The position numbers and the translations under genes are program-made. DNA of 59,949 nucleotides from Candidatus Bathyarchaeota archaeon (GTDB lineage: Archaea; Thermoproteota; Bathyarchaeia; Bathyarchaeales; Bathycorpusculaceae): assembly GCA_963720565.1 (NCBI GenBank), contig CAVRFW010000010.1, positions 1 to 59,949 of the forward strand, in the 5' to 3' direction. Each line of letters begins with the position of its first letter. Positions within the stretch are counted from its first letter, which is position 1. Shown here piece after piece: positions 10,422-55,635 of the stretch. Under the pieces are notes generated by a model. It saw only the letters and a list, made by a program, of their open reading frames with translations. It did not search any database and was not told the DNA's origin.

Positions 10422-10453
10422 TCAGGAAACATCAGTTACGGGAAGAGAGAAAT

Positions 10454-10780: not shown

Positions 10781-10829
10781 TAACCCCATTTGTAGAAGTA
10801 GTTTTTCATTCAGATTTTGAAAAGGAGCA

Positions 10830-11694: not shown

Positions 11695-11811
11695 TATACC
11701 ACTCTCACCAATTGAAAAGTGTCCAATACTTCGAAATAGACTGGACCTAAATACTTAGGGTTACATATAACTCTTACAGTTGGGCTTATCCAGCCATAGC
11801 CTTGGAGCGGG

Positions 11812-13014: not shown

Positions 13015-13163
13015 ATGCTCTTATCAATGAGTCTATGGAAGTCTGTCGCGCAACCTTTGTGTTCTTGTCGAAGGTGGATTGCTCCGTTCAGCGTTCGAGC
13101 CTTGTAAAATAGGTTTTTCCTGAATGTTTCCAAATCCCCGGCTGGTTTAGCCAGTGCGGATAG

Positions 13164-13652: not shown

Positions 13653-13776
13653 GTTTTACTTCTCCAGTGTCGGCCGGTGTTATTGAGCCTGAATAGTCAA
13701 CTTCGCTGTTCTGGGGTTAATGCATTTGCGGAACAGCCGAGTTTGCATGTGCTGCATTCCTGCCCGAAGCAAGCTG

Positions 13777-14961: not shown

Positions 14962-15043
14962 ATAATATTGACGTTAGAAAGGATTTTGGTTGAAGAAAGG
15001 TGGGGTGAGAGGCTTGTTTGCTCTCTACAGTTTTTTCAATGGT

Positions 15044-16456
15044 TTACATGGGGCCGCAGCCGATGTATTTCTTGTTGACGTCTTCTAGCCATGGATAGAG
15101 TTTGTGTAGTTTTGCCATTGATTCTGCGACTTTTTCTGTTGGGTACTCGTAAGGCTGTAGTCTGCCGTTGAAGTATTCGTCGTAGGCTTGCATGTCGAAG
15201 AATCCGTGTCCGCATAGTAGGAACAGGATGGTTTTCTCTTCGCCTGTCTGTTTGCATCTTAGTGCTTCGTCTACGGCTGCTTTTATGGCGTGTGATGGTT
15301 CTGGCGCGGGGATTATGCCTTCGGTTCTCATGAAGAGTTTTGCTGCGTCGAAGACGTCGATTTGGCTGTAGGCTTGTGTTGTCAATTGGTTCTCGGATGC
15401 GAGTAGGCTTATGGTGGGGGCTATTCCGTGGTAGCGTAGGCCGCCTGCGTGTATGGGTGCGGGGATGAAGTCGTGGCCCAGTGTGTGCATGGGTACTAGG
15501 GGGGTTATTCTTGCTGTGTCGCCGTGGTCGTATTGGTATTCGCCTTTGGTGACTTTGGGGCAGGCTGTTGCTTCCGTTGCTACGTAGCGTGTTTGTTTCG
15601 GGGCTTTCCCTGTTACTTTGTCGTGGTAGAATGGCCAGAACATGCCGGAGAAGCTGCTTCCGCCTCCTATGCAGCCGTATATGACGTCTGGGTAGTCTTC
15701 GGCTATTTTGAGTTGTTCTTGTGTTTCTAAGCCTATTACGGTCTGGTGTAGTAGAACGTGGTTGAAGACGCTGCCTATTGTGTAGTTGGCTTCTTTTTCG
15801 TTGACTAGAGCGTCTTCGACTGCTTCGCTTATTGCGATTCCGAGGCTGCCTTTGTTTTCTGGGTCTTCTGCTAGGATTTTTCTGCCGCTTTCGGTTTGTT
15901 TGCTGGGGCTTGCGTAGCATTGTGCGCCGAAGGCTTCCATCATCATTCTTCTGTATGGTTTTTGGTCGTAGCTAGCTCTGACCATGTAGACGGTGGCTTT
16001 TAGTTCGAACATTGCGGCGGCGAAGGATAGTGCAGATCCCCATTGGCCTGCTCCGGTTTCTGTGGTTAATCTTTCGGTGCCTTCTTTGAGGTTGTAGTAA
16101 GCTTGGGGAATAGCGGTGTTTGTTTTGTGGCTTCCTGCTGGGCTGGTGCCTTCGTATTTGTAGTAGATTTTCGCTGGGGTCTTCAGTGCTTTTTCGAGTC
16201 CGATTGCTCTGAAGAGTGGTGTTGGTCGGTAGATTCTGTAGATTTCTCGGACTTCTTCGGGGATGTTTATCCATCGTTCTTGGCTGATTTCTTGTCCGAT
16301 GATTTCTCTGGGGAATATTCTTGGGACGATTCCTACTCCCGGTTCCTTTGTTGCGGGGTCGATGAATGGGGGTAGGGGTTTGGGTAAGTCTGGGACGATG
16401 TTGTACCACTGTTTTGGTATTTGGTTTTCGTCTAGCATTATTTTTCTTTGTGGCAT
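15044..16456 (-). CDS. trpB2: Tryptophan synthase beta chain, type 2 (TrpB2)
   Basis: [14 protein letters not shown] lysine, [36 protein letters not shown]. Confidence 0.95.
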
Positions 16457-16546
16457 GTGTTTGTCTTCCGTTTTATGTTTCCATTAGGATTTTAAACAAC
16501 ACATTTATACTTATCTGTACATAAATGTACATTGTGGGTTTGACTC

Positions 16547-17050
16547 TTGTGGAACACTATCAAAAAGTACTTCGAAGGATACCCCGAACGGCTCAAAGTA
16601 GCCCGAGTCCTCGTTGAGAACGGGCTGAGCGCAAAAAACCATAAAATCTTCTTAAACCAGATCGAGGTTCCGCCCGTTCGCGTCGCCAGAGTCGCTGGAG
16701 TTGATAGGAGAACAGTTAACGAGACGTTGAGTCTAATCATGGAAAACCGTGAAATCAGGCTGATCTTTGAAGAGCTGCGGCCTGCAGGGCATTCGCTTAA
16801 AGAAATAGCCAAACATCTGAGTTTGGGTGTCGTTGAAATTACTCCTGTGGATGCAAAAATGCCGGGTATACTGGGGCGGTCTGCTATGCTTCTTACCACG
16901 GCTGGTTTGAGCATTAGGCAAGCGATTGTGGATGATCCTGAACTTTCGCCTGAGCCAAAACTCACGTTGATAGTGGAGAAGAAAATTCCTGGCGAGTTAA
17001 TCTCTGAATTGTTGAAAATCAGCGGCGTAGCCAAGATTTCAGTCTACTAA
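16547..17050 (+). CDS. HTH + ACT-domain regulator of amino acid metabolism (COG2150-like)
   Basis: ARVAGVDRRTV HTH and C-terminal ACT domain (PGILG...LSIRQAIVDDPEL). Confidence 0.85.
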   Translation: MWNTIKKYFEGYPERLKVARVLVENGLSAKNHKIFLNQIEVPPVRVARVAGVDRRTVNETLSLIMENREIRLIFEELRPAGHSLKEIAKHLSLGVVEITPVDAKMPGILGRSAMLLTTAGLSIRQAIVDDPELSPEPKLTLIVEKKIPGELISELLKISGVAKISVY

Positions 17051-17174
17051 TCCTTTGTAGCTTCGTGGGTGCGTAAATTTTGCTAGGATAGGCTCATTTC
17101 TTCGTTGTGCTCCTAGAAAAACTTATATTGCAAATGTGTTTTGTTGTTCTTCGCATTAAAGAGGTTATGTTGAT

Positions 17175-18836
17175 TTGTCATCTTCTAGACAGTCTGGTGG
17201 CGTACCTGTTCTCGTGTTGAAGGAAGGCTCAGATCGTACTCGGGGAAGAGATGCCTTACACGGAAACATTACCGCGATAAAAGTAGTGGCTGAAAGCGTT
17301 AGAAGCGCTTTAGGGCCTAAAGGTATGGATAAAATGCTCGTTGATAGTTTTGGTGATGTAACCATAACAAGCGACGGTCGCACGATACTGGATGAGATGG
17401 ATATTCAGCATCCAGCGGCAAAGATGCTTGTTGAGGTCGCCAAGGCACAGGACAACGAAGCAGGTGATGGCACCACATCTGCCGTAATAATCGCTGGGGA
17501 ACTGCTTAGCAAGGCTGAAGAGTTGGTTGAGAAAGGTGTTCATCCAACCGTAGTAATTGAAGGTTACAAGAAAGCAGCGGAAAAGTCGCTGGAGACACTT
17601 GACAAACTAGCTATGTCTATAGATTTGAAGACAGGTAAAGACTATCTGAAGAAAGCTGCAATTACGGCGATGGCGAGCAAACTTGTAGCTGACCACAAAG
17701 AGTACTTGGCGGACATAGTGGTTAAAGCGATGATGGCGGTTGCGGAGAAACAAGGTGACGTTTACAAGGTGGACGTTGATGACGTCAGGATTGAAAAGAA
17801 ACCTGGCGAATCCATCGGAGACACGACGCTGATTAACGGCATAGTTCTAGACAAGGAAGTTGTGCAGTCAGGAATGCCCAAACGGGTGGAGAACGCCAAG
17901 ATCGCGTTGCTTGACACTTCACTGGAAATTGAGAAGACCGAGTTTGATGCCAAAATTAGCATTGAAAAACCCGAAGAGATCGAAGCTTTTCTGAACCAAG
18001 AGGAACTAATGCTGAAAGCTATGGTGGACAAAATCGTTGGGGCAGGAGCAAATGTTGTCATCTGCCAAAAAGGCATTGACGACATGGTGCAGCATTTCCT
18101 GTCGCGCAAGGGAATTCTCGCAGTGCGCAGAGCCAAGAAGTCAGATATTGAAATGTTGGCAAAGGCTACAGGCGGAAAAATAGTCACCAAATTGGACGAT
18201 ATCAAGGCTTCAGATCTTGGGTATGCAGCTCTGATTGAAGAGCGGAAAATCGGCGATGACAAGATGACTTTCGTCGAAGGTTGCAAGCACCCGAAGGCAG
18301 TTACTCTTTTAATAAGGGGTGGGACGCAGCGGATGATTGCTGAAGCAGAACGTTCAATTCACGATGCCTTATGCGTAGTAAAAGATGTGCTTCAAGAACC
18401 TAGAATGGTTGCTGGTGGCGGTGCTCCAGAACTTGAAATGGCAAATGTGCTCAAGGGTTATGCTGACACTTTGCCTGGCAGAGAGCAACTTGCCGTCAGA
18501 GTATATGCAGAAGCCTTAGAGGCAATCCCAACAATACTGGCGGAAAACGCTGGATTAGACCCGATCGATGTCCTTTCAGAACTGAGGTCGAGACATGAAA
18601 AGGGCGAAAAATGGGCTGGCCTAGAAGTCTTAAGTGGAAAAGTTCAGGACATGTCAAAGGTTGGCGTTTTCGAACCGATCACAGTGAAAAAACAGATTAT
18701 CAAATCCGCAACTGAAGCAGCTACGATGATTCTGAAGATCGACGACATGATAGCTGCTGGAAAAATGAAGACTCCTCCTATGCCACCGGGCGGAGGGGGT
18801 CCAGGCGGAATGTATCCAGGCGCTGGAGAGTATTAG
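17175..18836 (+). CDS. ths: Thermosome (group II chaperonin) subunit
   Basis: [25 protein letters not shown]-rich tail. Confidence 0.97.
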
Positions 18837-32386: not shown

Positions 32387-35300
32387 CTATTTTTTCATTA
32401 CTCGTTCATCGACGTATCGCTTGATTGTTTCTTTTTCGTAGGGGATTCGGACTTTGAGGATGTTGCCTCCTCTTCCGCGTTCTCCCTGGAAGATTCTGGA
32501 TTCGACTATTCCGCGTCTCTCTAGCTCGGCTATGTGTCGTCCTCGATGTCCTCCGGCGCCGTAGACGCTTGATTTGGGTATTTTTCCTTGCCTGATTATG
32601 TCCATGAGTGTTCTCCATCCGGATTTTTCCAGTGATAGTTTTCGTTTCATGTAGTCGTCGGCGAAAGAGCATACCAGGTAGTTGAATATTGCTTCTGCTT
32701 CTTTGGTGTTGAATTCAAAGGTGGTTTTCGGGTGGACTGACACGTTCACCGGTTCTGGCGTGCTTGTTCGGAAACGGCCTTTGTCGTCGACGTATACCAC
32801 GTTTGGTTTTAGGGTGATCGGGCCAGTTTTAGTTGCTTGCAGGTTGATTTTGATCGTCTCGAGTTTAAGGGGTTCAATCTTTTTTCCCCTTAGATTTGCT
32901 GAGCTGTTTTCAAGGTCGTACTGGGGTGTTAGGCTGGTTAGCTTTGTGCCCGATGGAGCAAGGTGGTCGAGCCTGACCAATAGTCCGTGGTTGTTTCCAA
33001 TGTTCACTAGGTCGAGCATAACTTCGAATTGTTCTCCGATTTCTACGTCTTCAGCCGCCTTAAGGTTGGTTTGAATGTCTGCGTGCTCAAACCGGTCCGA
33101 GCCAACTGCACTCTCAATGGTAGCTGAAGGAACCGGAAAAGACGTTGTGGAGACTACGAGTGGAGTGTGCAATACTTCTGCCAGGGACAGGGCGAATTCT
33201 TTTTCCTTTTCTATCTCTTTCATCAGGTTGCGGGCTTGTGTCCGCTTCTCAGGGTGTTCTGCCTTCTCAAAATGGTCGGCCGAAGCTTCAAGGACCTTCT
33301 CTGCCATGATGTAGAGCTTTGTTTTCTGTTCAGGATCCGTTTCTTTTTTTGCTTTGTCGATGTAAACGTAGGCATTAAATAGCAGTCCCGTAGCCTTGGT
33401 GAATTCTGAGGCATTCTCGAAACCGGCTTTTGTGTAGTAGTTCCCCGCTGCATCTAACTCTTGAATCGCTGTGTTCCAGTTTGCCATGTCTCTGGTGTCG
33501 ACGAATTTTGTTCCGGCTTCCAAGGCTTTGCAGAAGTGGCTGTGCCCCATTGCAAGCATCCTTGTTTTTTCGTCTGAGCCCAGATCCTTTGCTTGCTGGA
33601 AGAGTCGTGAAGCTTCTGCGTAAAGAACTGGTGATATTTCTGTTTCTGCTTGGGTCATTTTTTGCCACGCTTCTGCGAGAGTGGCAATCAGTTCAAGATC
33701 TTTTCTTTCCAGCTTGTTTTTTAAGGCATGTGCAATTTTCTTGAAGATTTTGCTTGCTTCGCCGAATTTTTCCGAACTGAGAAGGTGGTCACCCTTCTTG
33801 TCAAGGGTTTTTGCTTCTTCGAGGATTATCCTTCCGACGCAGTATTCGTGTCTGATTTCGGTTACTCTGGCAAGGTCTTCTGCCAGTTCTTTCTCGTCAG
33901 GGTTCTCGATCTTGGCAACAGCGTCTTTGAGCGTCGCGTTGCTTTCGACGAATATTTTTGCTGCCCGTTCGAAGTTTTGGATTGCCTGTTCGTTTCTTTC
34001 TTTTCTGCTCAGGTCTTCTGCGTTCTCAAGTGTGGCCCAAGCGAGATAGTTTAGTGTCAGGTAACTCCATTGCTTCAGGGATCTGTGGATTTCAGCGGCT
34101 TTTTCATAGTATTCCTTGGCTATCCCATATTCTTGTCTTGCGTGGTGTTGTCTTGCCATCTCAATCTGGCTCCATGCTTCCATGTACGCAGCATAATTTT
34201 GGTAGAAGGTTTTCAGTTGTGGGATTTTGTCAGATGCTTTTCTATAGCTGGCGGAGGCCTGTAGGAAATTCTCTGATGCTTTCAAGTGTTCTCCTAGACT
34301 GTCTTGAATCTTGGCGATTTTCCAGTTTGATTCGGCAACTTGGCTGATTGTTTCCGTTTTTTCTGATGATTCTATTGCTTTCCGTGAGGCAACTATTGCC
34401 TGTTCTAGAAAGTTAGTATCGTTTGTCAGTTCATACAGTTTGGTTAGCTGTATCACGTGGGAATCCTGTATCCTATAGAGTGACGAATAAAGTTCCGTGC
34501 GACCCATGCCCTCAAAATAGGGCATAATTTTCCCAATCAGATCGAGGCTTTTTTCAGTTTGGGCTATTGCCTCCTCTAGCAAGTTCTTCTTTTTTTCTTG
34601 GTCTTTTTCCATTGAGCTTAGCTGATAATTTATTTTGGCTAAGCCAGATAGTTCCACTCCTCGATCCCAGTAGTCGTATGGTGTTAGTTGTTCAGCGATT
34701 TCGATTGCCCTTTCTCTGTACTTTAGGGCTCTTTTTAGCAGGCTCCTTTTCACGTCAAAATCCTGTTCCAGTCTTGCTCGAGCCGCAAGTGTTTTGCTTA
34801 CAACGTGAAGTACGCAGTCTACAATCAACGGTATGTCTGAATCCTCGGCGGTTTTCAAGGCTTCTATCCCTGATTTCTCGGACAACGCTAGGAGCTCTAT
34901 TTTCTTCTTTTGATCTGTTTCCAGCTCTGCCCATCCGAGATAGTATTCTGCATATCCTGCAGGGGCTGGCAAGGCTCCCCATCTGGGGCTTTGATACGAC
35001 AGTACGTTGAAGTGACGCTTTGCTCGGTCATAGAATCTCATGGCTCCATCAGCCAAATCTCTTATTCGGTCTGGATCCTCAGCAGCAGCGCATTTCCAAA
35101 ACCTAATGTAAGCTAATAAGTCCAGCGCAGAAGCTTGCAGGTAGTTGTCCTGTGCTTCTTCGCCGTATTCAAGAGACTTCTGAACAAGGCTTTCATGTGC
35201 TCCTGAATAGAGTCCCAGCCAGTAATAAGACAGACTCAGTGAATATGCGTCGTTGGCTTTTTCGGAAAATTCGATTGCTTTGCGAAAATGTTCAATGACC

Positions 35301-36001
35301 TTCAGCCGCAGCTGTTCTTGATTTTGTGGATCTTCAATGAAGTAGTAGCCAAGAAAATCACCTACGCAAACAAGTCCTAAACCGAGGAAAGCTCTGCCAG
35401 TTTCATATGAATCGCCGCTTTTGACAACAAGTTCAACTGCTTTTTCTGCCCAGGAGCTTCCTCTCTCGAGCATGGACTTTAGAGTCTGCCTATTCCATTC
35501 AAGAAACGATCGGTGCCAGATCGCAGGTGCAAGCAAGTTGAAGGTTCTGATGTATTCTGAATTATTTCCCGAATCCAAAAAAGCAGCAAGTGCTCTCTCT
35601 TCAAGGTCTAGGCATTCGTCAAGAAGTTTCCTCTTATCACCCGGAGAAGGGGTGAGCCAGTAACAAAGGTATTTGGAGATGGCTTGAAATAGAAGTGTTC
35701 TTGCCTTCTGTTTGACTTCCAGTTGATTGTGTAATTCATGGGCTTCTTGATAGTCTCTTACTGCTTCTTGAATTCTTTTTTTGAATTCTTCTTGACTTTT
35801 CGCTTGCATAGCTGCCCGATAGGAGGCGTATCCTAATCTCTCATTTAGGTCAGCCATGGCTGAGAAATTAAGTTTTTCTGTTAGGCTTAGTGCTTTCTTG
35901 TATGATTCGCATGCCCCCGACCAATCGTATGCTCTTTCATGTTCTACAGCCTGTGCGAATATTGCTTCTACTCCCTCTGACTTCGGGGGCATAATAAGCA
36001 C
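32387..36001 (-). CDS. Giant TPR/alpha-solenoid protein with C-terminal Ig-like (CARDB-like) and wHTH-like domains
   Basis: About 940 aa of TPR-like repeats; LDLVNIG...YVDDKG beta-sandwich; GWRTLMDI...ELERRGIVESRIFQGERGRGG wHTH. Confidence 0.85.
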   Translation of the reverse strand: MLIMPPKSEGVEAIFAQAVEHERAYDWSGACESYKKALSLTEKLNFSAMADLNERLGYASYRAAMQAKSQEEFKKRIQEAVRDYQEAHELHNQLEVKQKARTLLFQAISKYLCYWLTPSPGDKRKLLDECLDLEERALAAFLDSGNNSEYIRTFNLLAPAIWHRSFLEWNRQTLKSMLERGSSWAEKAVELVVKSGDSYETGRAFLGLGLVCVGDFLGYYFIEDPQNQEQLRLKVIEHFRKAIEFSEKANDAYSLSLSYYWLGLYSGAHESLVQKSLEYGEEAQDNYLQASALDLLAYIRFWKCAAAEDPDRIRDLADGAMRFYDRAKRHFNVLSYQSPRWGALPAPAGYAEYYLGWAELETDQKKKIELLALSEKSGIEALKTAEDSDIPLIVDCVLHVVSKTLAARARLEQDFDVKRSLLKRALKYRERAIEIAEQLTPYDYWDRGVELSGLAKINYQLSSMEKDQEKKKNLLEEAIAQTEKSLDLIGKIMPYFEGMGRTELYSSLYRIQDSHVIQLTKLYELTNDTNFLEQAIVASRKAIESSEKTETISQVAESNWKIAKIQDSLGEHLKASENFLQASASYRKASDKIPQLKTFYQNYAAYMEAWSQIEMARQHHARQEYGIAKEYYEKAAEIHRSLKQWSYLTLNYLAWATLENAEDLSRKERNEQAIQNFERAAKIFVESNATLKDAVAKIENPDEKELAEDLARVTEIRHEYCVGRIILEEAKTLDKKGDHLLSSEKFGEASKIFKKIAHALKNKLERKDLELIATLAEAWQKMTQAETEISPVLYAEASRLFQQAKDLGSDEKTRMLAMGHSHFCKALEAGTKFVDTRDMANWNTAIQELDAAGNYYTKAGFENASEFTKATGLLFNAYVYIDKAKKETDPEQKTKLYIMAEKVLEASADHFEKAEHPEKRTQARNLMKEIEKEKEFALSLAEVLHTPLVVSTTSFPVPSATIESAVGSDRFEHADIQTNLKAAEDVEIGEQFEVMLDLVNIGNNHGLLVRLDHLAPSGTKLTSLTPQYDLENSSANLRGKKIEPLKLETIKINLQATKTGPITLKPNVVYVDDKGRFRTSTPEPVNVSVHPKTTFEFNTKEAEAIFNYLVCSFADDYMKRKLSLEKSGWRTLMDIIRQGKIPKSSVYGAGGHRGRHIAELERRGIVESRIFQGERGRGGNILKVRIPYEKETIKRYVDERVMKK

Positions 36002-39711: not shown

Positions 39712-39838
39712 CTATGGTGTCCGCTTCTACGAAAGATCGAGGACTCATAACATGGGCTTTAGCCTACCACAATTCGTTATCGAAAAATGATATATGAAGA
39801 GAAAAACAATTGTCATTTTGGTGGATGAGTGATTTTTA

Positions 39839-40552
39839 ATGGTCAAGTTGGTGGCTATTAATGGCAGTGCAAGAATGGAGAAAGGCAATACTGCGAGAGT
39901 TTTGGAGCACTTTCTAGATGGCGTTAGAGATGCTGGGGCTCTCGTTGAGCTTTTTTATGCGAAGCGTTTGAACGTCGAGCCATGCACAGCTGAGTTTTAC
40001 TGTTGGAATGAGAAGCTAGGTCAGTGTTATCAAGAGGATAATATGCAGTTGCTCTATCCCAAGCTGCGGGAGGCGGATATTCTCGTGTTGGCGACGCCGG
40101 TGTACATTCCGTTGCCTGGGGAAATGCAGAATCTGATAAACAGGCTTTGCCCATTAATCAATCCGGTTTTGTCGTGGCGGGGAGGTCGTACTCGAGCCCG
40201 GTTTCACGATGACGTCAAGATTCGCAAGATAGTTTTATTGTCTGTTTGCGGTTGGTGGGAGATAGGCAACTTCGGCACGGTAGTTCGAATTGCCGAGGAG
40301 CTTGCGAAGGACGTTGACGTGGATTTTGTTGGTCCTATTTTGCGTCCCCATGCGTATCTTATGGCTCAAAACAGCAAGAAGGCTCAGGAAGTTGTTGTGG
40401 CGTTGAGGGAGGCTGGTTACCTGCTTGTGACGAAGGGGGTAGTTTCCAGGAATGTGCTGGACACGATTAGTCAGCCTTTGATGTCCGAAGAAGAGTACAG
40501 AAGAGACCTTAGCGACGACTATGAGAGAGTTAAGAACAAATTAGGCGATTAA
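39839..40552 (+). CDS. Flavodoxin-fold NADPH-dependent FMN reductase / iron-sulfur flavoprotein
   Basis: INGSARMEKGNT, PCTAEFYCW...C, LATPVY. Confidence 0.9.
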   Translation: MVKLVAINGSARMEKGNTARVLEHFLDGVRDAGALVELFYAKRLNVEPCTAEFYCWNEKLGQCYQEDNMQLLYPKLREADILVLATPVYIPLPGEMQNLINRLCPLINPVLSWRGGRTRARFHDDVKIRKIVLLSVCGWWEIGNFGTVVRIAEELAKDVDVDFVGPILRPHAYLMAQNSKKAQEVVVALREAGYLLVTKGVVSRNVLDTISQPLMSEEEYRRDLSDDYERVKNKLGD

Positions 40553-40584
40553 GGCAATTGTCAGAATAGGCTGGCATTCACGTA

Positions 40585-40636
40585 GAAGATAGAGATCGCG
40601 GGAGACATCTCTATTAGTCCCAGGTTCAAATCCCGC
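40585..40636 (+). repeat. Cassette-boundary repeat R1
   Basis: GATCGCGGGAGACATCTCTATTAGTCCCAGGTTCAAATCCCGC. Confidence 0.85.
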
Positions 40637-41190
40637 TATTTGTCGAGTTCTTTTCCTACACTCCAAGCCTTAGCGAATTTCTTACCAAGACTCCAGTAGC
40701 TCCTATCATTCATCACAAACAGGATGGGCTGCACCTTATCAAAATCGACCACTCCATCCGTTAGAACGAGTTCGTCACAGTAAGTGGCTACAACTTTGCC
40801 TATGAATGCGTCATGATTTGGAAAATCAATGGTTTTCACTAGTTCGCATTCTATGTTTATGGTGCATTCTTCAATCATTGGGGCAGTTTTGAGCTTGCCA
40901 AAAAAAGTCTTGAACATTGCCGCTTTGTTTTGGTCTACTCCTGAAACTAAGCCGCAGTAATCGGTTTCCTTAACTTGTTTTGTTGAGGGAATGTTGATGC
41001 TGAAGGTCTTGTTTGCCTTGATACCATTGTTAGTGTAATGGGTTTTGTTCATTCCTAGTGAGACGGAGTTAGGCTCCATTATGCCAACATGTGCTATTGT
41101 CGTGTAGTTTGGTTTATGATTCACTAATGCTCCAACTAGTACGGTTGGCAAGGGATACAGGCAGTTTTTTGCTCCAAGTTCAATTTTCAT
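40636..41190 (-). CDS. Flavin reductase family protein (flavoredoxin-like)
   Basis: LYPLPTVLVG, HYTNNGI, DYCGLVSG, APMIEEC, HDAFIG. Confidence 0.92.
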   Translation of the reverse strand: MKIELGAKNCLYPLPTVLVGALVNHKPNYTTIAHVGIMEPNSVSLGMNKTHYTNNGIKANKTFSINIPSTKQVKETDYCGLVSGVDQNKAAMFKTFFGKLKTAPMIEECTINIECELVKTIDFPNHDAFIGKVVATYCDELVLTDGVVDFDKVQPILFVMNDRSYWSLGKKFAKAWSVGKELDK

Positions 41191-41288
41191 CTTTAGGAAC
41201 ACCTAGGAATTGCGTTTTTGCTTCAGGTGAAGATTATTGTTTCTAGTAGATAAACAAGTAACTGCAGTCTACCAAACGCACCGATATA

Positions 41289-41340
41289 GAAAAAGAGGGA
41301 AATGCGGGAGACATCGCCACCTGATTGGGGTTCAAGATTT
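41289..41340 (+). repeat. Cassette-boundary repeat R2
   Basis: AAAAAGAGGGAAATGCGGGAGACATCGCCACCTGATTGGGGTTCAAGAT. Confidence 0.85.
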
Positions 41341-41377
41341 ATATCGAAACAATATATTTCGTGCTTTGGGTGTCTGT

Positions 41378-41917
41378 ATGCCCTATACACCTATTCACTG
41401 GAGCATAGCTTATCTAGCGAGAGAAATCAGACCCAGTTTGAGCCTTCCAGCTCTGATTGTAAGCACCGTGGTTCCTGACTTAGAAATTCCATTCATCTAC
41501 ATTATTACTGGCGGTCAACTTGGTAGGCTTGTTCTGCACAGCTTGTTGGGAGCAATTACACTTGCGACTTTGTTGTCGGTGTTCTTGACAGTTTTCGTCT
41601 ATTCCCCAGTAGTTTCGCATCTTTTTAAGGTGGACTCCAAAATTGTCAAAGGCAGGTGTCGGTTCTCCTGGAGTCTATTTGCGGTTTGTCTGTTGGGGAG
41701 TCTTTCTCACGTGCTAATCGACTCGTTGCATCATGAGTATAATCCCTTGCTGTTTCCGTTTACTTATGACTCTTTTGACGCTTTGGTATTCATGCATAAC
41801 TGGACCCTGGCGTCTGTGATTATTCCGTTGTCGTTTTTGGCTCTGCTGGTTTTGTTTGTCGCCAAAGAGGTTAGGCACGGAACTAAGAACATCTGGGTGA
41901 GGTTGCTTGTCGAATGA
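41378..41917 (+). CDS. DUF4184-like membrane protein (metal-dependent hydrolase-like)
   Basis: MPYTPIH, VPDLE, LHSLLG, SHVLIDSLHH, PLLFPF. Confidence 0.8.
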   Translation: MPYTPIHWSIAYLAREIRPSLSLPALIVSTVVPDLEIPFIYIITGGQLGRLVLHSLLGAITLATLLSVFLTVFVYSPVVSHLFKVDSKIVKGRCRFSWSLFAVCLLGSLSHVLIDSLHHEYNPLLFPFTYDSFDALVFMHNWTLASVIIPLSFLALLVLFVAKEVRHGTKNIWVRLLVE

Positions 41918-41953
41918 ATTTGGATGCAAAGACAGTTAGTGCTTCTTCAAAGA

Positions 41954-42021
41954 GAAAAAAAGTGGATTGTGTGCAGCAACTATCGAAGTGAGTAGTTTTT
42001 CAAAGTGCGGGGTGCACGCCA
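41954..42021 (+). repeat. Cassette-boundary repeat R3 (degenerate)
   Basis: AAAAAAAGTGGATTGTGTGCAGCAAC...TTCAAAGTGCGGGGTGCACGCCA. Confidence 0.55.
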
Positions 42022-42034
42022 AAAAATAATATTC

Positions 42035-42283
42035 CTAAACTGTCGATGGCTCTAACAGTTTTTGAAAATCCCTATTGATCCTAACTTTTCCGTCTTCAAC
42101 ATCAAACTTCGCCAAGTCAAACTCGTTCAAGAAATCAAGCCTTGATTCTACCTCACAGCCAGCCAGTCTCAACTTCTCTGTCAACTCCGAGATGCTGTGC
42201 CATTCTCCGTCACTTAGCAAATCGAGAATCATCGTCATCTTGAAAACCATAGGCTGCCCCTTCTCTTTGCTACTGATTGCCAC
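42035..42283 (-). CDS. Small winged-helix protein
   Basis: ILDLLSDGEWHSISELTEKL...LDFLNEFDL. Confidence 0.75.
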   Translation of the reverse strand: MAISSKEKGQPMVFKMTMILDLLSDGEWHSISELTEKLRLAGCEVESRLDFLNEFDLAKFDVEDGKVRINRDFQKLLEPSTV

Positions 42284-42438
42284 AAGCCTGCTCTTAAATG
42301 CCTATGGAATTATCCTTCAGTATTACCCTTTAGAAAACTCTAGGTGTTTGTCCATTCGACAAACAAGAAAGTTGGCGTGCCATAAGCGTGAACAATCCAA
42401 AAGCACTCCATAGTGTACGCTGCAACGGAAAAAAAGAG

Positions 42439-42486
42439 AAAAAGGGATTGTGCGGCAGACGTCGTCACAAGTATAGGCTTAACCCT
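42439..42486 (+). repeat. Cassette-boundary repeat R4
   Basis: AAAAAGGGATTGTGCGGCAGACGTCGTCACAAGTATAGGCTTAAACCC. Confidence 0.75.
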
Positions 42487-42618
42487 TTAGCCTTGGGCAG
42501 CGAGTATCTGCCTTTAGGAGCTTCTCCCTTCTCCGCCAGAAATAACACAAGCACCTATGTGCCATACGTCGATTGAGCGAGAGAACTTAACCTATCCAAT
42601 AGTTAAAAGCAACTGTTA

Positions 42619-42948
42619 CTATTGCTGGAGCAAATTATGCGGTGGAAGTTTCACCCCGTTTTTGCCGTTTGTTTCCTCAACAAGCAACCCTGCCAGTTCT
42701 CCGTGTCGATGCAAGAAGTCCAGCCCCTTCTGAGTAACTGCATAAACGTCTTTTCCGTTGTCGTCGAATTTGTTGAGCAACTGAATTTTCATCATGAACG
42801 TAAGATACTCATTCAGCTGGGCGAAGCTCATGTTTGCCCTATACATTATCTGAGTCTTCAATGTTCCCTCTTTTGCAATGCCCAAGATTTCAGCTATAAT
42901 GCTAAGCTTGTCTCTTCTCTTGGATGATTCCGCCGTCGACGAGTTCAT
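42619..42948 (-). CDS. Archaeal winged-helix regulator (HTH_45 family)
   Basis: RRDKLSIIAEIL...KTQIMYRANMSFAQLNEYL...YAVTQKG. Confidence 0.9.
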   Translation of the reverse strand: MNSSTAESSKRRDKLSIIAEILGIAKEGTLKTQIMYRANMSFAQLNEYLTFMMKIQLLNKFDDNGKDVYAVTQKGLDFLHRHGELAGLLVEETNGKNGVKLPPHNLLQQ

Positions 42949-43077
42949 CTCTATTTTCCTCTTTCAGAACTGTTTTCTATAATTGAGTTATGGAAAAGAA
43001 TACTTTAAGTCCTATTTCGCTGGCCTGCATATTCTAACAACTGTAATATTCCACTTAACACAACTCGAAACAGTAGG

Positions 43078-43138
43078 AAAAAAGGGAAATGCAGGTGATA
43101 TCTCCACCTGAATCGGGGTTCAAATCTCGCGACTCACA
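43078..43138 (+). repeat. Cassette-boundary repeat R5
   Basis: AAAAAAGGGAAATGCAGGTGATATCTCCACCTGAATCGGGGTTCAAATCTCGCGACTCACA. Confidence 0.85.
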
Positions 43139-43167
43139 ATTTTCCTAAGGAAAAGGGGTTTTGTTAT

Positions 43168-44022
43168 CTAACCATCATTGGGTTTCCGTCCTGCCAATAT
43201 CACCTGAAAAATGTATTTCGCGGTAGGTCGGTTTTGATAGAGCACCCTTTTCACAAGTCCCACTTGGAGGAATTTCTTCCTAAGCACTGGGCTTTCCCGC
43301 ATTAACTTAAGCATAACTATTGCGATTTTGAAGAGGTTTTTCCAACCTCCGACGTCTTTTATCTTCTCAAGAAAATTCAGTTCAGAAAAATGTTCAGCTA
43401 CATGAATGCTCTTAAAACCCGCTTTTGTCAACCATTCGATATAGTCAGTAATCAGGGGGATGTGAAACTTGTACCCTAATACTTCGGAGTATGTTTGTTC
43501 TGCTGATAGGATTTTCGCATCCGCTTTGGCATTAACGTTCGGGTCTTTCATGAGTTCCGCCAACGCGATTTGCCCACCGAATTTTAGTGTCGAAAAAAAG
43601 CCCTCAAATGCACTCTGCTGTAGGAAAAACGCCATGAATTCGGTAATAACCACATCGAAAGTGTTAGGTGGAAAGGGTAGTGCATGTGCGTCCCCTATTT
43701 GGAAATGCACTTTTTCATGGGCAAGCGACTTTGATGCAAAGGCATTAGCGGTGCTTATCGATTCCGGCGATATGTCAATTCCATACACTATTGCTCCTGT
43801 AGTTTCTGCAAGGTGCAAGGCAGTACCACCCGCCCCACACCCGACTGCCAATACCATACTGGAATCCGTGATTCGGGCCAATTTGGCGATGAGTTCTACC
43901 GGTTTCTTCCCTTGAGTGTTAAATGACAGTAGCCCCAATTTGCTGACTATTTCATACCAAGAAAGACCTTCAAGGGTCTTTGACGAGGCTGCCCAGAACT
44001 TGTCAATCTCCAACATGCCCAA
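43168..44022 (-). CDS. Class I SAM-dependent methyltransferase
   Basis: VLAVGCGAGG, GIDIS, GDAHALPFPPNTFDVV. Confidence 0.92.
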   Translation of the reverse strand: MGMLEIDKFWAASSKTLEGLSWYEIVSKLGLLSFNTQGKKPVELIAKLARITDSSMVLAVGCGAGGTALHLAETTGAIVYGIDISPESISTANAFASKSLAHEKVHFQIGDAHALPFPPNTFDVVITEFMAFFLQQSAFEGFFSTLKFGGQIALAELMKDPNVNAKADAKILSAEQTYSEVLGYKFHIPLITDYIEWLTKAGFKSIHVAEHFSELNFLEKIKDVGGWKNLFKIAIVMLKLMRESPVLRKKFLQVGLVKRVLYQNRPTAKYIFQVILAGRKPNDG

Positions 44023-44158
44023 TACCTCAGCATCGAGCTAGCTAGTGACCTGTATTGATAGCTTAGTTTGATAGCTAGCTAGACTGCTATTTTATAATGC
44101 CTGCCCATAAAAGAATATCTCCAACACTCATCCTGAACCTGACAGGGAGAGAACAGAG

Positions 44159-44204
44159 AAAAAAGGGGATTGAGCGGCAGACATCTCAGCCTGAATGGGT
44201 TTCG
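44159..44204 (+). repeat. Cassette-boundary repeat R6
   Basis: AAAAAAGGGGATTGAGCGGCAGACATCTCAGCCTGAATGGGTTTCG. Confidence 0.85.
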
Positions 44205-44210
44205 TGGAGT

Positions 44211-44603
44211 CTACTTTTCTTGTTTCTTCGATAGGTAGGCTTCGACTTCAGCAAACTGTTTTTTGAATTCGCCTAAGTCTATGCTGGTCGCATGTATCAT
44301 TTCGCTCCAACCCGTTGTAAAGCGGGCTAGAAAAGCGGTTTCAGCGATTTCGTCGTCAGTAGCTCCGTTCATTTTAGCTGCCCGCGTATGGAAATGAATA
44401 CAGTATGGACACTTGATTGTTGCTGCAATAGCCAAGCCCATTAGCTCTTTGTACTTGGCAGGTATCTTAGTCTCCGAGAAAGAGTATTCTTTCATTAGAG
44501 CCCATTCGTGGGGAACAACGTCGTGCGGAATCCTTTTGAACTGGTCGAGAACAACGCCCATAGTTTTCTTGATGTCTTCAAGAGTTGACTCGTACTCTGA
44601 CAT
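44211..44603 (-). CDS. Carboxymuconolactone decarboxylase/AhpD family protein
   Basis: KYKELMGLAIAATIKCPYCIHFH...GATDDEIAE. Confidence 0.92.
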   Translation of the reverse strand: MSEYESTLEDIKKTMGVVLDQFKRIPHDVVPHEWALMKEYSFSETKIPAKYKELMGLAIAATIKCPYCIHFHTRAAKMNGATDDEIAETAFLARFTTGWSEMIHATSIDLGEFKKQFAEVEAYLSKKQEK

Positions 44604-44778
44604 ATTCTATAAACACCTAGTTTTTCCTACCGGAAATCAGTCTATAAGCGTTTGTGATTGCACCCCACCTATCACATTGAGAATGGTAGAGAAGAAACGA
44701 CCTATTTTCCAGTATTAGCTAATTCCCAATAATTGCTTTGAGTTATTCATTCTAATCAGTTTCAAAAAGGTGCTATGG

Positions 44779-44846
44779 AAAAAAAAAGGGGATTGTGCGG
44801 GAGACATCTCCATTTGTCACAGGTTCAAATCCCAGTGGCCTCACCA
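44779..44846 (+). repeat. Cassette-boundary repeat R7 (best tRNA-3'-like copy)
   Basis: A9GGGGATTGTGCGGGAGACATCTCCATTTGTCACAGGTTCAAATCCCAGTGGCCTCACCA. Confidence 0.9.
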
Positions 44847-44935
44847 CGATTATCCAGGTTCAGGTAGCGTGCGAGTTGTTCTTTTGGTGGAAAGCTTATT
44901 ATGAGACATTATATATTGATTATAGACGATATATA

Positions 44936-45166
44936 ATGAGCGAAGAAGCCACCACCATACAACTAAAAAAATCAGTGGTTGAGCAGCTAAAAACCATTAG
45001 AAGGTATCCGAGAGAAACTTATAACGAGATTATTTCCAATCTGATAAAAATGGCAAAGGATTCCCGAAACAGAAGGCAATACGACGAATTCATTCACACA
45101 ATACAGCAGGCAAAGATGAAGGAATTATGGGATAACGAGGAAGATGAGGCTTGGGAAAATGTTTAG
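44936..45166 (+). CDS. Antitoxin (RHH-like N-terminus, acidic WDNEEDEAW tail)
   Basis: TTIQLKKSVVEQLK...ETYNEII; overlaps the toxin start. Confidence 0.8.
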   Translation: MSEEATTIQLKKSVVEQLKTIRRYPRETYNEIISNLIKMAKDSRNRRQYDEFIHTIQQAKMKELWDNEEDEAWENV

Positions 45167-45473
45167 AGCCGGAGACGTTGTCGTTGCGAGCGTGCAGTTC
45201 ACAGATACTGCAGAAGTGAAGACTAGACCGGCGGTAGTTCTGTTCGAAGAGCTAGGAAACGTCGTGATCGCTGGCGTGACCAGCAACCTCAAGATGAAAG
45301 GAATACCCTTGACCAAGAGTGAGGGCGCTATAAAAGAAAGCGTAATAAAACTAAACTACATCTTTACCATCTCCAACGAAATGGTATCCAAAGTCATTTT
45401 TCACTTAAGCAAAGAAAAGAAGCGCCTCATATTTGAGGAACTTGGCAGAAGACTTGATGGACTCAAAGCATAG
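45159..45473 (+). CDS. mazF: PemK/MazF family toxin
   Basis: GDVVVASVQFTD...KTRPAVV...IAGVTS...SVIKLNYIFTI. Confidence 0.88.
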   Translation: MFRAGDVVVASVQFTDTAEVKTRPAVVLFEELGNVVIAGVTSNLKMKGIPLTKSEGAIKESVIKLNYIFTISNEMVSKVIFHLSKEKKRLIFEELGRRLDGLKA

Positions 45474-45589
45474 CTTTCATGTTTTGTCTTTTTCAGGTGA
45501 AAACACGTCTAACAAGGATAGCAAGATGTAGGCTGAGACTGGGCAGTTCAAGAAAGCAAGCAAGACAGGATAACCTTGAAGACAAATAA

Positions 45590-45629
45590 GAAAAAGCGGA
45601 TTGCGGGAGACATCTCTGCTTGGTTCAAG
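45590..45629 (+). repeat. Cassette-boundary repeat R8
   Basis: GAAAAAGCGGATTGCGGGAGACATCTCTGCTTGGTTCAAG. Confidence 0.85.
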
Positions 45630-45670
45630 TTGGCATGTGCCCCATCCAAACATTGAGAGAATTTTTCTTG

Positions 45671-45743
45671 ATTTTTTCATTACTCGTTCGTCGACGAATC
45701 GTCTAATTGTTTCTTTCTCGAAGGTAATTCGGACTTTAAGGAT
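45671..45743 (-). pseudogene. Orphan copy of the 3' tail of the TPR-Ig-wHTH gene family
   Basis: About 63/73 nt identical to 32389-32461; ILKVRITFEKETIRRFVDERVMKK vs ILKVRIPYEKETIKRYVDERVMKK. Confidence 0.85.
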
Positions 45744-46026
45744 AGGACTTCGTTTCTCCTCTTTTTCCTCCAACTACCTGAAGTGCTTTTCTAACGATTC
45801 ATAGACTTGATTGGCGCAAGCCCACCGCCCAAGAGTTTAATCTGAGATAGCATCGATTATTATCAGAGTGGAGTCGCGACAACCAATAGGTCCCAAATGG
45901 TCTTTTTCCAAGTGAGTATCTAGCGCGCTAACCCGTCCGTCGGGTTTCTTGATAATTGTGAAGAGCACGTTGGCGCAGTGTTTTATATTGCTTTTTTGAT
46001 ACAAGTAGCGGGAGCAACTGGTCTGT

Positions 46027-46461
46027 TTGAATGACCCAACGAAGGTTTCTTGCCCAAGCTGTGGAAACAAGACAGATGCAGAGAACGGGTTATGCTCTGT
46101 CTGCGGAAAAGCCCTGAATGCTGAACCTGAAAACGAAAAAGTGCTTCTATCTTTCGGTCCCATGGACGTCAGCGTGTGCTTCAAGCGTCCGGGCTTCTTT
46201 GTTCTGACACAGCGAAACGACACGAAAATCGTTCTGACAAACAAACGAATTTACGGCCTCTCCTCGTTCTCAGGCAAGCCCCGCTTCGATGTCCCATACA
46301 ACGCGATAACCTCCAAGGAGAACACCAAGTACAATTTCTTCAGAGTCCTTTACCTTCAATACCTGGACGACAAAAACGCCAAGGAAGTGTCCATAATGGG
46401 CGGACCAACAAACTACAGCAACGTTGCTCGTGCCCACGAATTGATTCCAGCGCCAGGATAA
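46027..46461 (+). CDS. Zinc-ribbon + bacterial PH-like domain protein
   Basis: CPSCG...CSVCG, then KIVLTNKRIY...DVPYNAI. Confidence 0.75.
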   Translation: MNDPTKVSCPSCGNKTDAENGLCSVCGKALNAEPENEKVLLSFGPMDVSVCFKRPGFFVLTQRNDTKIVLTNKRIYGLSSFSGKPRFDVPYNAITSKENTKYNFFRVLYLQYLDDKNAKEVSIMGGPTNYSNVARAHELIPAPG

Positions 46462-46528
46462 ATTGATTATTTTGGCTTGTGAACTTTTTGAGCACGACTT
46501 TTTTTAACAATTTTTTAGTGAGCGTTCG

Positions 46529-53041: not shown

Positions 53042-55635
53042 ATGGATTTGAATAATTTTACTATTAAGTCGCAGGAAGCCATTCAGAAAGCAACGGAAAT
53101 TGCCTTGGCAGCACAGAATCAGGCAGTTGAGCCTTCGCATTTGCTGAAGGGAATATTGATGGTTGATGAGAATGCGGCTCCCTATTTGCTGCGGAAGTTG
53201 AATGTGAACTTTGAGGCTTTTTCGAAGGCGCTCGATAAACAAGTTGATTCCCTGCCTAAGGTCAGCGGTGGACAACAGTATCTCTCCTCTAATTCTAATC
53301 GGGCTCTTCAGAAGGCATCTGGAGATAGCTTCAGAATTCAAGGATGAGTTCATTTCTATCGAGCATCTGTTGTTGGGAATCTTGGCTCAGAATGATGCTG
53401 CTTCGAGACTGCTTGTGAGTAATGGGGTCTCTGAGAAGGGTTTGAGGGAGGCTATCAAGCAGTTGCGTAAGGGATCGACTGTTACTTCTCAGACTGCTGA
53501 GGAGACTTATAATTCGCTGAACAAGTTTGCGTTGAACCTGAATGATTTGGCTAGGAGAGGTAAGCTTGATCCGGTTATTGGTCGCGACGAGGAGATACGC
53601 AGGGTCCTTCAGATCTTGTCGCGGAGAACAAAGAATAATCCGATTCTGATCGGGGAGCCTGGTGTTGGCAAAACTGCGATCGTGGAGGGGCTTGCTCGCC
53701 GCATAATTGATGGTGATGTGCCGGAGAATCTGAAGTCTAAGCAGATTTTTTCGTTGGATATGGGTGCTTTGATTGCTGGTGCGAAGTTTAAGGGTGAGTT
53801 TGAAGAGCGGTTGAAGAGCGTTGTCAAGGAGGTTGTTTCGGCTGAGGGCGATATTGTGCTGTTTATCGATGAGATTCACACGCTCGTCGGAGCTGGTGCC
53901 AGTGAGGGGGCGATGGATGCGGCTAACATTCTGAAGCCTGCGTTGTCTAGGGGGGACTTGCGTGCGATCGGTGCTACTACTCTGAAGGAGTATCAGAAGT
54001 ATTTTGAGAAGGACAAGGCTCTTGAGAGGCGGTTCCAGCCGGTTATGGTTAATGAGCCGGACACGTTGGATGCTATTTCCATTCTTCGAGGTCTGAAAGA
54101 GCGTTATGAAACGTATCATCACGTCAGGATCAAGGATGAGGCGATAATTGCTGCTGTTGAGCTTTCGCAGAGGTACATTTCGGACCGTTTCCTTCCGGAC
54201 AAGGCGATTGATTTGATTGATGAGGCGGCCTCTAAACTTCGGCTTGAAATTAATTCTGCTCCTGAAGAACTGGAGACGATAGATCGGAAGATTCGCCAGC
54301 TGGAGATTGAACGTGAAGCCATTAAACGCGAGAAAGATGAGGAGAAGCTAAAGTCGCTTAATGAGGAGATCGCGAACCTCAGTGAAAAACGTGGTCAGCT
54401 GAAGGCTAAGTGGCAGTCTGAAAAGGATCTGGTTGAACAGATTCAGATCAAAGAAGAATGAGATCGAACAACTCAAGTTTGAAGATGAGAGGGCAAACCG
54501 TGCTGGTGATATTGGAAAGGTTGCGGAAATTCGCTACGGCAGAATTCCGGAAGCAGAAAAAGCGATTGAGAGTTTGAAGAAGAAGCTGTCTGAGTTGCAG
54601 AAGGATTCAGCCCTGATCAATGAGGAAGTTGATGCTGAAGAGATCGCTGAAGTAGTTTCCCGCTGGACAGGTATCCCGGTTAGCCGAATGCTCCAGACTG
54701 AAAAGCAGAAGTTGCTCAACATAGAAACGGAGCTTCACATGAGGGTTGTCGGGCAGGAAGAAGCAATCAGTGCGGTGTCAGATGCTATTAGGAGAAACCG
54801 TGCAGGTTTGCAGGATCCGAAACGGCCGATTGGGTCTTTTATCTTCTTGGGTACCACAGGGGTTGGCAAGACCGAGTTGGCGAAGGCTCTGGCTGAATTC
54901 CTATTCAACAACGAGAATAACATGGTTAGGATTGACATGTCTGAGTATCAGGAGCGGCATACTGTTTCAAGACTCGTTGGTGCACCTCCTGGATACGTGG
55001 GTTATGAGGAAAGTGGACAGTTAACCGAGGCTGTTAGGAGAAAGCCTTACGCTGTTGTGCTTCTCGACGAGATTGAAAAGGCGCATCCGGACGTGTTCAA
55101 TATTTTGCTTCAGGTGCTTGACGACGGCAGATTGACTGATAACAAGGGCCGAACCGTGGATTTCAAAAATACCATAATCATAATGACCTCAAACATTGGC
55201 TCTCACATAATTCAGGAGAACATGGAGAAATTGAACGAGCGAAATCGTGAAGAAATCTTAGATCAGACACGCGAACAGGTCTTTGATTTGCTGAAAAAGA
55301 GCATAAGGCCGGAGTTTTTGAATCGTGTCGATGAGATAATCATGTTTCAAGCGTTGACTCGGGAGGAAGTGCGGAGAATAGTAGAGCTTCAGCTGGAAAG
55401 AGTCCAGAAGATGATGGAAAAGAGCGGCATCAAACTGTCTGCCACTAAGAAAGCCGTGGATTTCATCGCCAATATCGGTTTTGACCCTCAGTTCGGTGCC
55501 AGGCCGATAAAACGTGTTATCCAAAAGAACGTGTTGAACGAACTGTCAAAAATGATCCTAGAAGAAAAAGTCGATAAAAACTCGGTAATTGTTGTCGATG
55601 AAAAGAACGGAGCATTGATATTCAAGAATAAGTGA
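53042..55635 (+). CDS. clpB: ATP-dependent disaggregase ClpB (frameshifts near 53320 and 54452)
   Basis: Clp-N domain, [27 protein letters not shown], long M-domain, [24 protein letters not shown]. Confidence 0.95.

Follow-up and report, generated by a model that had tools for sequence, protein, structure and literature searches.

A row of single-gene units between putative tRNA-derived attachment junctions in a Bathyarchaeia genome

Among described systems, the islands built by tycheposons in Prochlorococcus seem to work most like the locus analysed here. As outlined in the available account, tycheposons combine a tyrosine integrase, a replication module and cargo at tRNA genes; their islands hold partial tRNAs between stacked insertions, consist mostly of cargo left behind and contain fragmented integrases (bioRxiv 10.1101/2020.12.28.424599). 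The locus lies in a stretch of 59,949 nucleotides (the window) from a Candidatus Bathyarchaeota archaeon (assembly GCA_963720565.1, contig CAVRFW010000010.1, positions 1 to 59,949 of the forward strand), where eight plus-strand repeats, R1 to R8, bound seven gene units between positions 40575 and 45647. We propose, with a probability of roughly 0.7, that each repeat is an attachment (att)-type junction produced when integrative elements of a single Bathyarchaeia family recombined in a site-specific way. The array would then be an accretion island of integrase-less modules, integron-like in layout and made from the parts of tRNA-targeting integrases.

Several other systems bear comparison. Cis-mobilizable elements (CIMEs) are flanked by att sites, lack an integrase of their own, stand in tandem with related elements and are expected to be moved by the integrase of a related element. 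Family 2 casposons depend on Cas1, have inverted terminal repeats and generate short target duplications. CIMEs and the site-specific accretion of ICEs (integrative and conjugative elements) and IMEs (integrative and mobilizable elements) in streptococci are the subject of PMC7563491 and PMC5704250, and family 2 casposons that of PMC6614799. The cryptic integrated elements of Thaumarchaeota are presented in PMC6563490 as integrated by tyrosine recombinases, occupying mostly tRNA genes and forming arrays by re-use of the same site. Integrons have been reported in archaeal metagenome-assembled genomes (10.1101/2022.02.06.479319 / PMC9668308). For Bathyarchaeia themselves, the available portions of two papers mention integrases in passing only (PMC10848311, PMC11697101).

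A preliminary description of this DNA, made from its letters, had placed eight co-oriented repeats here, and all eight are present on the plus strand, R3 being weak (coordinates in Table 1). Their cores follow one another, start to start, at 706, 664, 484, 639, 1083, 623 and 806 nt. The 15-mer GCGGGAGACATCTCC, allowing at most 3 mismatches, has seven matches in the window against 0.89 expected, a count reached in 0 of 100 shuffles; six of the seven lie inside the array, all on the plus strand. R3 and R4 are missed at this cut. R4 is clear in the alignment, and R3 is strongly diverged (nhmmer E = 4.7e-4, with R3 itself included in the profile). In the consensus given earlier, the continuation 'N~9-GGTTCAAATCCC' is not general. 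As had been stated, R1 and R6 adjoin stop codons (open reading frame (ORF) ends at 40636 and 44211), and R2 and R7 lie between divergent gene starts, so that the repeats are not simply terminators. The attC cores are likewise lacking (GTTRRRY in none of the eight repeats, RYYYAAC in one), and the spacing of 484-1083 nt with whole genes in the intervals sets the array apart from CRISPR. All seven units hold intact genes, each with room for its own upstream region, and none contains an integrase; nor did any of the 28 ORFs searched from 29 to 56 kb match Phage_integrase, in line with the earlier statement that the window has no recombinase.

The repeats are composite. Each begins with an arm of about 40 nt, an A-run followed by GGGGATTnTGCGGGAGAyATCTCCAC, which holds the near-palindrome GGAGA-nn-TCTCC. 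The arm consensus from 66 aligned genomic and foreign copies reads ...AAAAAAAGGGGATTnTGCGGGAGAnATCTCCACT; because the pattern that selected these copies spans the palindrome, its conservation in this set is partly by construction. On the 3' side of the arm come a spacer of about 10 nt and a variable tail. The tail of R7 agrees in 24 of 26 nt with the tRNA-Pro(GGG) of the host genome (T-loop, acceptor strand and CCA), and an arm copy elsewhere in the genome (C9:500800) matches the tRNA-Pro tail in 27 of 27 nt. Tails of R1 and R5 contain 15-nt T-arm matches, and those of R2 and R8 GGTTCAA only; this T-loop-like motif is thus present in R1, R2, R5, R7 and R8 and absent from R3, R4 and R6. The tRNA tails are eroded to differing degrees across the array, and the R4 type of tail recurs in copies on contig C11 and in one same-genus genome. 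Other genomes have tails that repeat the ends of tRNA-Leu, -Cys, -Ala, -Ser and -Pro genes, among others. We read the 3' part of the repeat, which the preliminary description had overlooked, as a decayed tRNA gene end.

Searches for other kinds of structure in the repeats were largely negative. ARAGORN found no tRNA in the window, and its relaxed settings returned implausible intron models only. Rfam gave no match. Minimum-free-energy folds of 23 genomic copies, computed for both strands, had nothing in common beyond the short palindrome and no long hairpin, on which ground a structured RNA or attC-like hairpin was rejected. A tRNA-Gln gene was also dismissed as a tail source: an arm on C9 (C9:495607-495760) begins 12 nt past the end of this gene, and its tail is unlike that tRNA. 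The next arm, 5.1 kb beyond, bounds genes for a STAND ATPase, a KaiC-like ATPase and an MFS (major facilitator superfamily) transporter.

The arm was also found in larger elements of relatives. In three public Bathyarchaeia loci (L124, L132 and L096; Table 1), a tRNA gene is followed by 3-4 kb of cargo and then by the arm, with the tRNA end directly repeated next to it. In L124, L096 and L153 the opposite strand encodes, immediately past the tRNA, a decayed protein end with the C-terminus ...YTQL...DEYVCK..A....EA..LIEAGFEYVC....KLFRKRK, in which we recognise the catalytic-tyrosine region of a tyrosine recombinase with a conserved extension behind it. This C-terminal fragment has relatives in 133 of the 151 genomes sampled from the order; the roughly 600 matches include many full-length frames of 380-450 aa and many stumps. 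A tRNA gene lies beside the integrase end in 16 of 20 loci with full-length frames.

Seventeen of these 20 integrase loci, those of at least 6 kb, were searched for a second copy of the tRNA end. It was present in four of the 17, and in four of the 12 that reach at least 15 kb. In these complete elements (L235, L237, L246 and L251) the direct repeats measure 20, 28, 21 and 33 nt and lie 8-19 kb from the tRNA. The arm directly precedes the repeat in all four, which argues that it is the integrase-distal att arm of a tRNA-targeting, plasmid-like family of integrative elements. Counting L124, L132 and L096, seven loci pair a tRNA gene with the arm and a directly repeated tRNA end. A tRNA-end direct repeat at both borders is thus seen in relatives, and the window has the tails only, with no tRNA gene. 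All four integrases pass the Pfam Phage_integrase cut-off, and a Prim-Pol and/or PriCT_1 protein adjoins the integrase in three of the elements, L246 having no Prim-Pol match. The repeats of L235 and L246 correspond to the reverse complement of the tRNA 5' end, a second targeting mode within the same family.

The complete elements carry defence genes. L246 has a type I restriction-modification system, and L251 a BREX-like ATPase, a DNA methylase and Csa1. In L237 (G132:C4:60800-80700), positions ~9000-17600 hold a complete type I CRISPR-Cas set (Cas6, Cas8b-like TM1802, Cas7, Cas5, Cas3, Cas4, Cas1 and Cas2), placed between the integrase/Prim-Pol module and the arm. The Cas1 of this cargo set is the sole one seen in the complete elements. 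At the integrase-proximal att sites of L240, L243, L244, L249 and others, the acceptor 3' strand of the tRNA appears again, over 8-10 nt, at 5-25 nt past the tRNA gene, for example as CAGCGGCCCC after tRNA-Pro and CCCCGCCCG after tRNA-Arg; C9:500800 in the host genome has such a second copy as well. It may represent a core-type binding site.

The arm is widespread. The host assembly (G000) comprises 2.09 Mb in 13 contigs, labelled C, and is 88.8% complete. A sequence-only model has 22 arm matches there, a cruder profile about two dozen, spread singly or in small clusters over nine contigs. A 23-nt arm core with at most 3 mismatches was present in 18 of 41 related genomes, with no match for the reversed control pattern. 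Scanning related genomes with a profile of the repeats, which the preliminary description had proposed, extended this to 131 of 151 genomes sampled from the order, with at least about 1229 matches in total, no more than 41 candidates being scored per genome. A 17-nt degenerate pattern applied to genome contigs was too unspecific, most of its 122 stretches being chance matches in bacteria; the 26 Bathyarchaeia/Thermoproteota loci with a full arm were retained. IMG/VR yielded three contigs with the arm near one end, all of them fragments that added nothing. Cassette order could not be compared within the genus, because same-genus genomes are only about 73% identical in DNA and the neighbourhood of the P-type ATPase is rearranged in one of them (G002) and has no arms. 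Its orthologue of the P-type ATPase encoded in the window (L076, G002:C5, 3447-6001) falls into three separate frames in the alignment and is possibly broken.

Evidence for mobility came from contigs of four public metagenome runs, aligned to 39800-46500 at 90% likeness or more; no sequencing run contains more than 17% of the array's sampled words. An empty site was recovered in a contig of 1367 nt from run X3, which matches 40201-40563 and 45940-46459 at about 92-94%, has 14 other letters at the joint and lacks all 5376 nt of the array. The array is therefore accessory DNA that a relative lacks. A second contig (run X1, 515 nt) carries the flavin-reductase gene, with 9 differences over 361 nt. 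The homologous stretch begins precisely at 40635, the base next to the end of the R1 tail, and a different arm and spacer precede this position. The match of a third contig (run X2) likewise begins at 40635, with unrelated sequence before it, so that one unit or more is present in other contexts and breaks at the edge of a repeat. Dozens of further contigs match the R7 arm only (44781/44782 to 44812-44816 or 44831-44835), with flanks that vary on both sides. Two arm-to-arm joints, 43118 to 44782 and 44684 to 45601, were set aside as not interpretable, their sides being 21-23 nt, and so were the parts of the stretch that no contig covered.

Similar exchanges can be seen within the host genome, where arms share a left or a right flank with different partners. 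A second copy of 44157-44718, which spans R6, the CMD gene and the region upstream of it, lies at C7:12960-13523 with 96% identity and unrelated neighbours. Two paralogous junctions, C4:64636 and C5:182108, have 400 nt of left flank in common, as well as arm and spacer, and part where the T-loop begins; beyond that point a full tRNA-Leu-like tail follows in one of them and unrelated DNA in the other. Since the genes of the array are intact and the flavin-reductase breakpoint falls exactly at 40635, independent movement of single units is favoured, and it is plausible that they can move separately from larger elements. The units, which have no integrase, would probably do so in trans.

These observations can be joined in one mechanism. 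A junction would consist of the element's arm (A-run, G-run and palindrome), a spacer of about 10 nt and a core taken from the end of a tRNA gene, from the T-loop onward. An autonomous member at a tRNA gene would have its integrase facing the tRNA end, usually adjoined by a Prim-Pol replicase; cargo would come next, and then arm and core. An incoming circle (arm-core-P') would recombine with the core of the tRNA gene or of a resident junction, and repeated insertion into the resident core would give a head-to-tail stack whose internal borders read arm, core, next unit. The window would contain such a stack, 5376 nt long, with each unit reduced to one gene or one toxin-antitoxin pair, and the units would be moved in trans by the integrases of incoming elements. 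Integrases that target tRNA genes generally prefer to cross over in a tRNA loop and use the stem halves as core sites. Here crossover would fall within the 7-nt T-loop, the T-stem halves serving as inverted core binding sites; this fits the tails, whose shared part in R2, R8 and the C4/C5 pair stops at GGTTCAA or just past it. As the arm is more conserved than the core, we suggest that it binds a partner protein or an integrase region that stays conserved irrespective of the tRNA target. Read on the minus strand, the arm is the palindrome with a T-run after it and lies just downstream of five minus-strand array genes, and for this reason it may also end the transcripts of those genes.

Remnants of the integrase family in the host genome are consistent with this picture. 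At C9:500800 a 59-aa stump of the integrase C-terminus directly follows an arm and tRNA-Pro tail, the order expected for an internal border of a tandem stack. Other stumps lie at the true tRNA-Pro(GGG) gene on C8 and at tRNA-Arg and tRNA-His genes. The three Phage_integrase matches of the genome are on contigs other than that of the window. An intact 478-aa tyrosine recombinase beside tRNA-Trp on C5 was rejected as a family member; it is of another type, with no arm or direct repeat in the 29 kb to the contig end. Separately, integrase N-terminal parts align over tRNA-Cys and tRNA-Arg genes at C3:28698-28832 and C1:3766-3969. They belong to a sub-type that targets tRNA 5' ends, and their position suggests that its att site lies inside the integrase gene, as in SSV-type integrases.

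A number of results weigh against att-type junctions of one element family. No arm or direct repeat was found within 20 kb in eight of the 12 long integrase loci. Arm and integrase co-occur only loosely: both are missing in only 5 of 151 genomes, and several genomes of one genus have the integrase without an arm match. As this association is not tight, it was not used as support. Three of the eight tails (R3, R4 and R6) are not tRNA-like. R6 with CMD compared with C7:12960, and likewise L130 compared with L147, share the palindrome, spacer and right flank and not the left flank; these breakpoints therefore fall inside the arm, where crossover in the core predicts otherwise, and suggest homologous recombination between arms or a second exchange point. 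A toxin-antitoxin pair like that of unit 7 (72-83% amino acid identity) occurs in a same-genus genome with no arm detected beside it. The 88.8%-complete host assembly has fragments only and no full-length integrase of the family. Finally, no tRNA gene lies to the left of the array or at the empty site, and the island is therefore not at the normal target of the family.

Much of the same evidence bears on an explanation by decay. Full-size, integrase-bearing elements might have been stacked and then reduced by deletions that left the last gene and arm of each, so that no unit ever moved alone. Integrase remnants do lie beside tRNAs and one arm in the host genome, and decayed ones in L124 and L096; the island's final unit consists of a truncated gene end, and the tails vary in erosion. 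Random deletions should leave fragments, however, and all seven units are intact with upstream room. The flavin-reductase unit found in two other runs with its break exactly at the tail edge, the CMD unit duplicated at 96% beside another arm, and the arms that share a left or right flank with differing partners also speak against decay as the whole account, which we consider unlikely. It is very improbable, in our judgement, that the arm is primarily a functional signal (a terminator or insulator, the site of a regulatory protein or a Prim-Pol origin) scattered in the manner of repetitive extragenic palindromic (REP) sequences, its link to recombination being secondary. Its palindrome and T-run after five minus-strand genes, its conservation across an order and the Prim-Pol/PriCT proteins in three of four complete elements would suit that role. 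R2 and R7, however, lie between divergent starts, the arm is followed in seven loci by tRNA-derived cores that repeat the tRNA gene, and L246 is complete and has the arm without a Prim-Pol match. Nor did Rfam match the arm, and a bacterial-type promoter and terminator scan, uninformative in itself since its counts equalled those of shuffles, flagged R5 alone.

Barely credible is a third account, in which the tRNA-end repeats are target-site duplications and the arm is the terminal repeat of Cas1-driven transposons. Target duplications of casposons measure 14-15 bp, below the 20-33 nt of the direct repeats in the complete elements. Cas1 (PF01867) had no match in the host genome at its 88.8% completeness, while the control search was positive in 7 of 14 reference genomes. 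The eight arms are co-oriented with no inverted partner, a tyrosine integrase stands at the tRNA end in four of four complete elements, and their only Cas1 belongs to CRISPR-Cas cargo. What recommends this account is that family 2 casposons insert at tRNA 3' ends and form tandem arrays, as summarised in PMC6563490. A broader proposal, which goes beyond the junctions themselves, is that Bathyarchaeia maintain an integron-like cassette economy. Genes tagged by arm and core would be excised as circles and captured singly in trans by the integrases of integrase/Prim-Pol elements, arrays could form away from tRNA genes, and the arm would serve both as an integrase-recognition module and as an insulating terminator. 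We hold this tentatively, at less than even odds.

Set beside the described systems, the locus and its relatives resemble tycheposons in having a site-specific tyrosine integrase, a replication module and cargo at tRNAs, with partial tRNA copies separating successive insertions, and in islands that are mostly leftover cargo with integrase fragments. They differ in the archaeal host, the unrelated integrase lineage whose conserved C-terminal extension ends ...FEYVC...KLFRKRK, the conserved 40-nt arm at every junction and the single-gene units, and in that this island is not beside a tRNA gene. Like CIMEs, the window array, L124, L132 and L096 are att-flanked DNA without an integrase of its own, in tandem with related units; unlike CIMEs they involve no conjugation module, the array has many very small units in a row, and mobilisation in trans is putative. 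Archaeal tyrosine-recombinase integration and arrays formed by re-use of one site are shared with the thaumarchaeal elements, for which PMC6563490 describes no conserved arm motif and no rows of single-gene units devoid of integrases. With family 2 casposons these elements have in common that they insert at the 3' ends of tRNAs, form tandem arrays and repeat the tRNA end; they are set apart by the absence of Cas1 in the host genome, by an array in which no arm copy is inverted and by direct repeats that measure 18-33 nt.

The layout is closest to that of integrons and of clusters of attC sites lacking integron-integrases (CALINs). Sites are co-oriented, there is about one gene per unit with some reversed, one unit is a toxin-antitoxin system and, as in CALINs, no integrase lies beside the array. 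In contrast to integrons, there is no IntI, no attC structure and, in a motif search of the eight repeats, no R''/R' core; the sites would be double-strand att junctions with a tRNA-derived core, and the units apparently carry their own upstream regions. The suggestion in the preliminary description of a gene capture and accretion system thus holds for the repeats as recombination-site junctions and not for a stand-alone new system, as the parts are those of a known type of tRNA-targeting integrase.

The genes of the array and its flanks are listed in Table 1. Pfam bore out six of the units named earlier; the winged-helix call for 42035-42283 was not upheld, this frame having no match at the threshold used. 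That unit has a paralogue at C6:82620-82822 (73% DNA identity). The listed start of the unit 2 ORF overlaps R2, and the real start is probably further in; the antitoxin of unit 7 probably starts at the ATG at 44938. The HTH_45 gene is the most widely matched part of the array, with DNA-level relatives across many genomes of the family and order. A paralogue including the promoter region lies at C9:258061-258506 (82%), and homology stops where R5 starts. The protein is an open candidate for a recombination directionality or regulatory factor of these elements.

Table 1. Repeats, gene units and flanks of the array in the window, with three integrase-less loci of relatives
Feature	Position (nt)	Strand	Remarks
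Whole island	40564..45939		5376 nt; related population joins 40563 to 45940
Left chromosomal flank, flavin mononucleotide (FMN) reductase-like gene	39839..40552	+	Retained in empty-site contig
R1	40575..40634	+	Diverged arm, no clean A-run; tail GGTTCAAATCCCGC; adjoins stop codon of next gene
Unit 1, flavin reductase-like	40636..41202	-	Pfam Flavin_Reduct E = 7.6e-19
Unit 2, YdjM/DUF4184 membrane protein	41237..41917	+	Pfam YdjM E = 4e-8, DUF4184 E = 1.6e-7
R2	41284..41335	+	Arm; short tail GGGGTTCAAG
R3	41951..42016	+	Strongly diverged arm; no tRNA-like tail
Unit 3, 82-aa ORF	42035..42283	-	No Pfam match at E <= 0.001
R4	42430..42496	+	Arm; tail of different type (CACAAGTATAGGCTTAACCCTTTAGCC)
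Unit 4, HTH_45 winged-helix protein	42619..42948	-	Pfam E = 2.4e-19
R5	43071..43136	+	Arm; tail GGGTTCAAATCTCGC
Unit 5, class I SAM (S-adenosylmethionine) methyltransferase	43168..44022	-	Pfam Methyltransf_31 E = 2.9e-19, among others
R6	44153..44210	+	Arm without tRNA-like tail; adjoins CMD stop codon
Unit 6, CMD/AhpD-like protein	44211..44603	-	Pfam CMD E = 2.2e-19
R7	44776..44847	+	Best-preserved arm (44776-44816), spacer, near-complete tRNA-Pro(GGG) 3' end with CCA
Unit 7, toxin-antitoxin pair, DUF7557 antitoxin-like and PemK/MazF	44795..45473	+	Pfam
R8	45582..45628	+	Arm; short tail TGGTTCAAG
Truncated last unit	45641..45939	-	45671-45743, 86% to 3' end of 1204-aa ORF
Right chromosomal flank, 144-aa ORF	46027..46461	+	Weak DUF7575 match; retained in empty-site contig
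L124			tRNA-Leu; direct repeat 18 nt; integrase-less
L132			tRNA-Ala; direct repeat ~30 nt; integrase-less
L096			tRNA-Ser; direct repeat ~28 nt; integrase-less

Two further features of the window were noted. The 73 nt at 45671-45743, just past R8, match 32389-32461 at the 3' end of the 1204-aa ORF (32387-36001, minus strand), which has no Pfam match; they look like the truncated end of a paralogue inside the island. At 53211-55635 a ClpB-like chaperone is split over two overlapping ORFs, one with Clp_N, AAA and AAA_lid_9 (53211-54461) and the other with AAA_2 and ClpB_D2-small (54433-55635); a frameshift or an assembly error is possible.

Full-text searches, outside subscription journals, on Bathyarchaeia integrases, archaeal integrons, archaeal cis-mobilizable elements and thaumarchaeal integrated elements gave no paper that describes the arm or arrays of this kind. 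We see here a known process, accretion at att sites derived from tRNA genes, taken to an integron-like extreme of single-gene units that lack integrases and bear a conserved arm. Bathyarchaeia are archaea abundant in sediments and difficult to grow in culture, and their gene exchange is barely described. In 151 genomes from one order, well over a thousand junctions bear the same conserved 40-nt arm, which ties defence-carrying integrase/Prim-Pol elements to rows of small accessory genes. It offers a simple sequence handle for mapping the flexible genome of Bathyarchaeia and finding mobile cargo, and also for asking whether archaea evolved a cassette capture functionally parallel to that of bacterial integrons from the ordinary parts of tRNA-targeting integrases.

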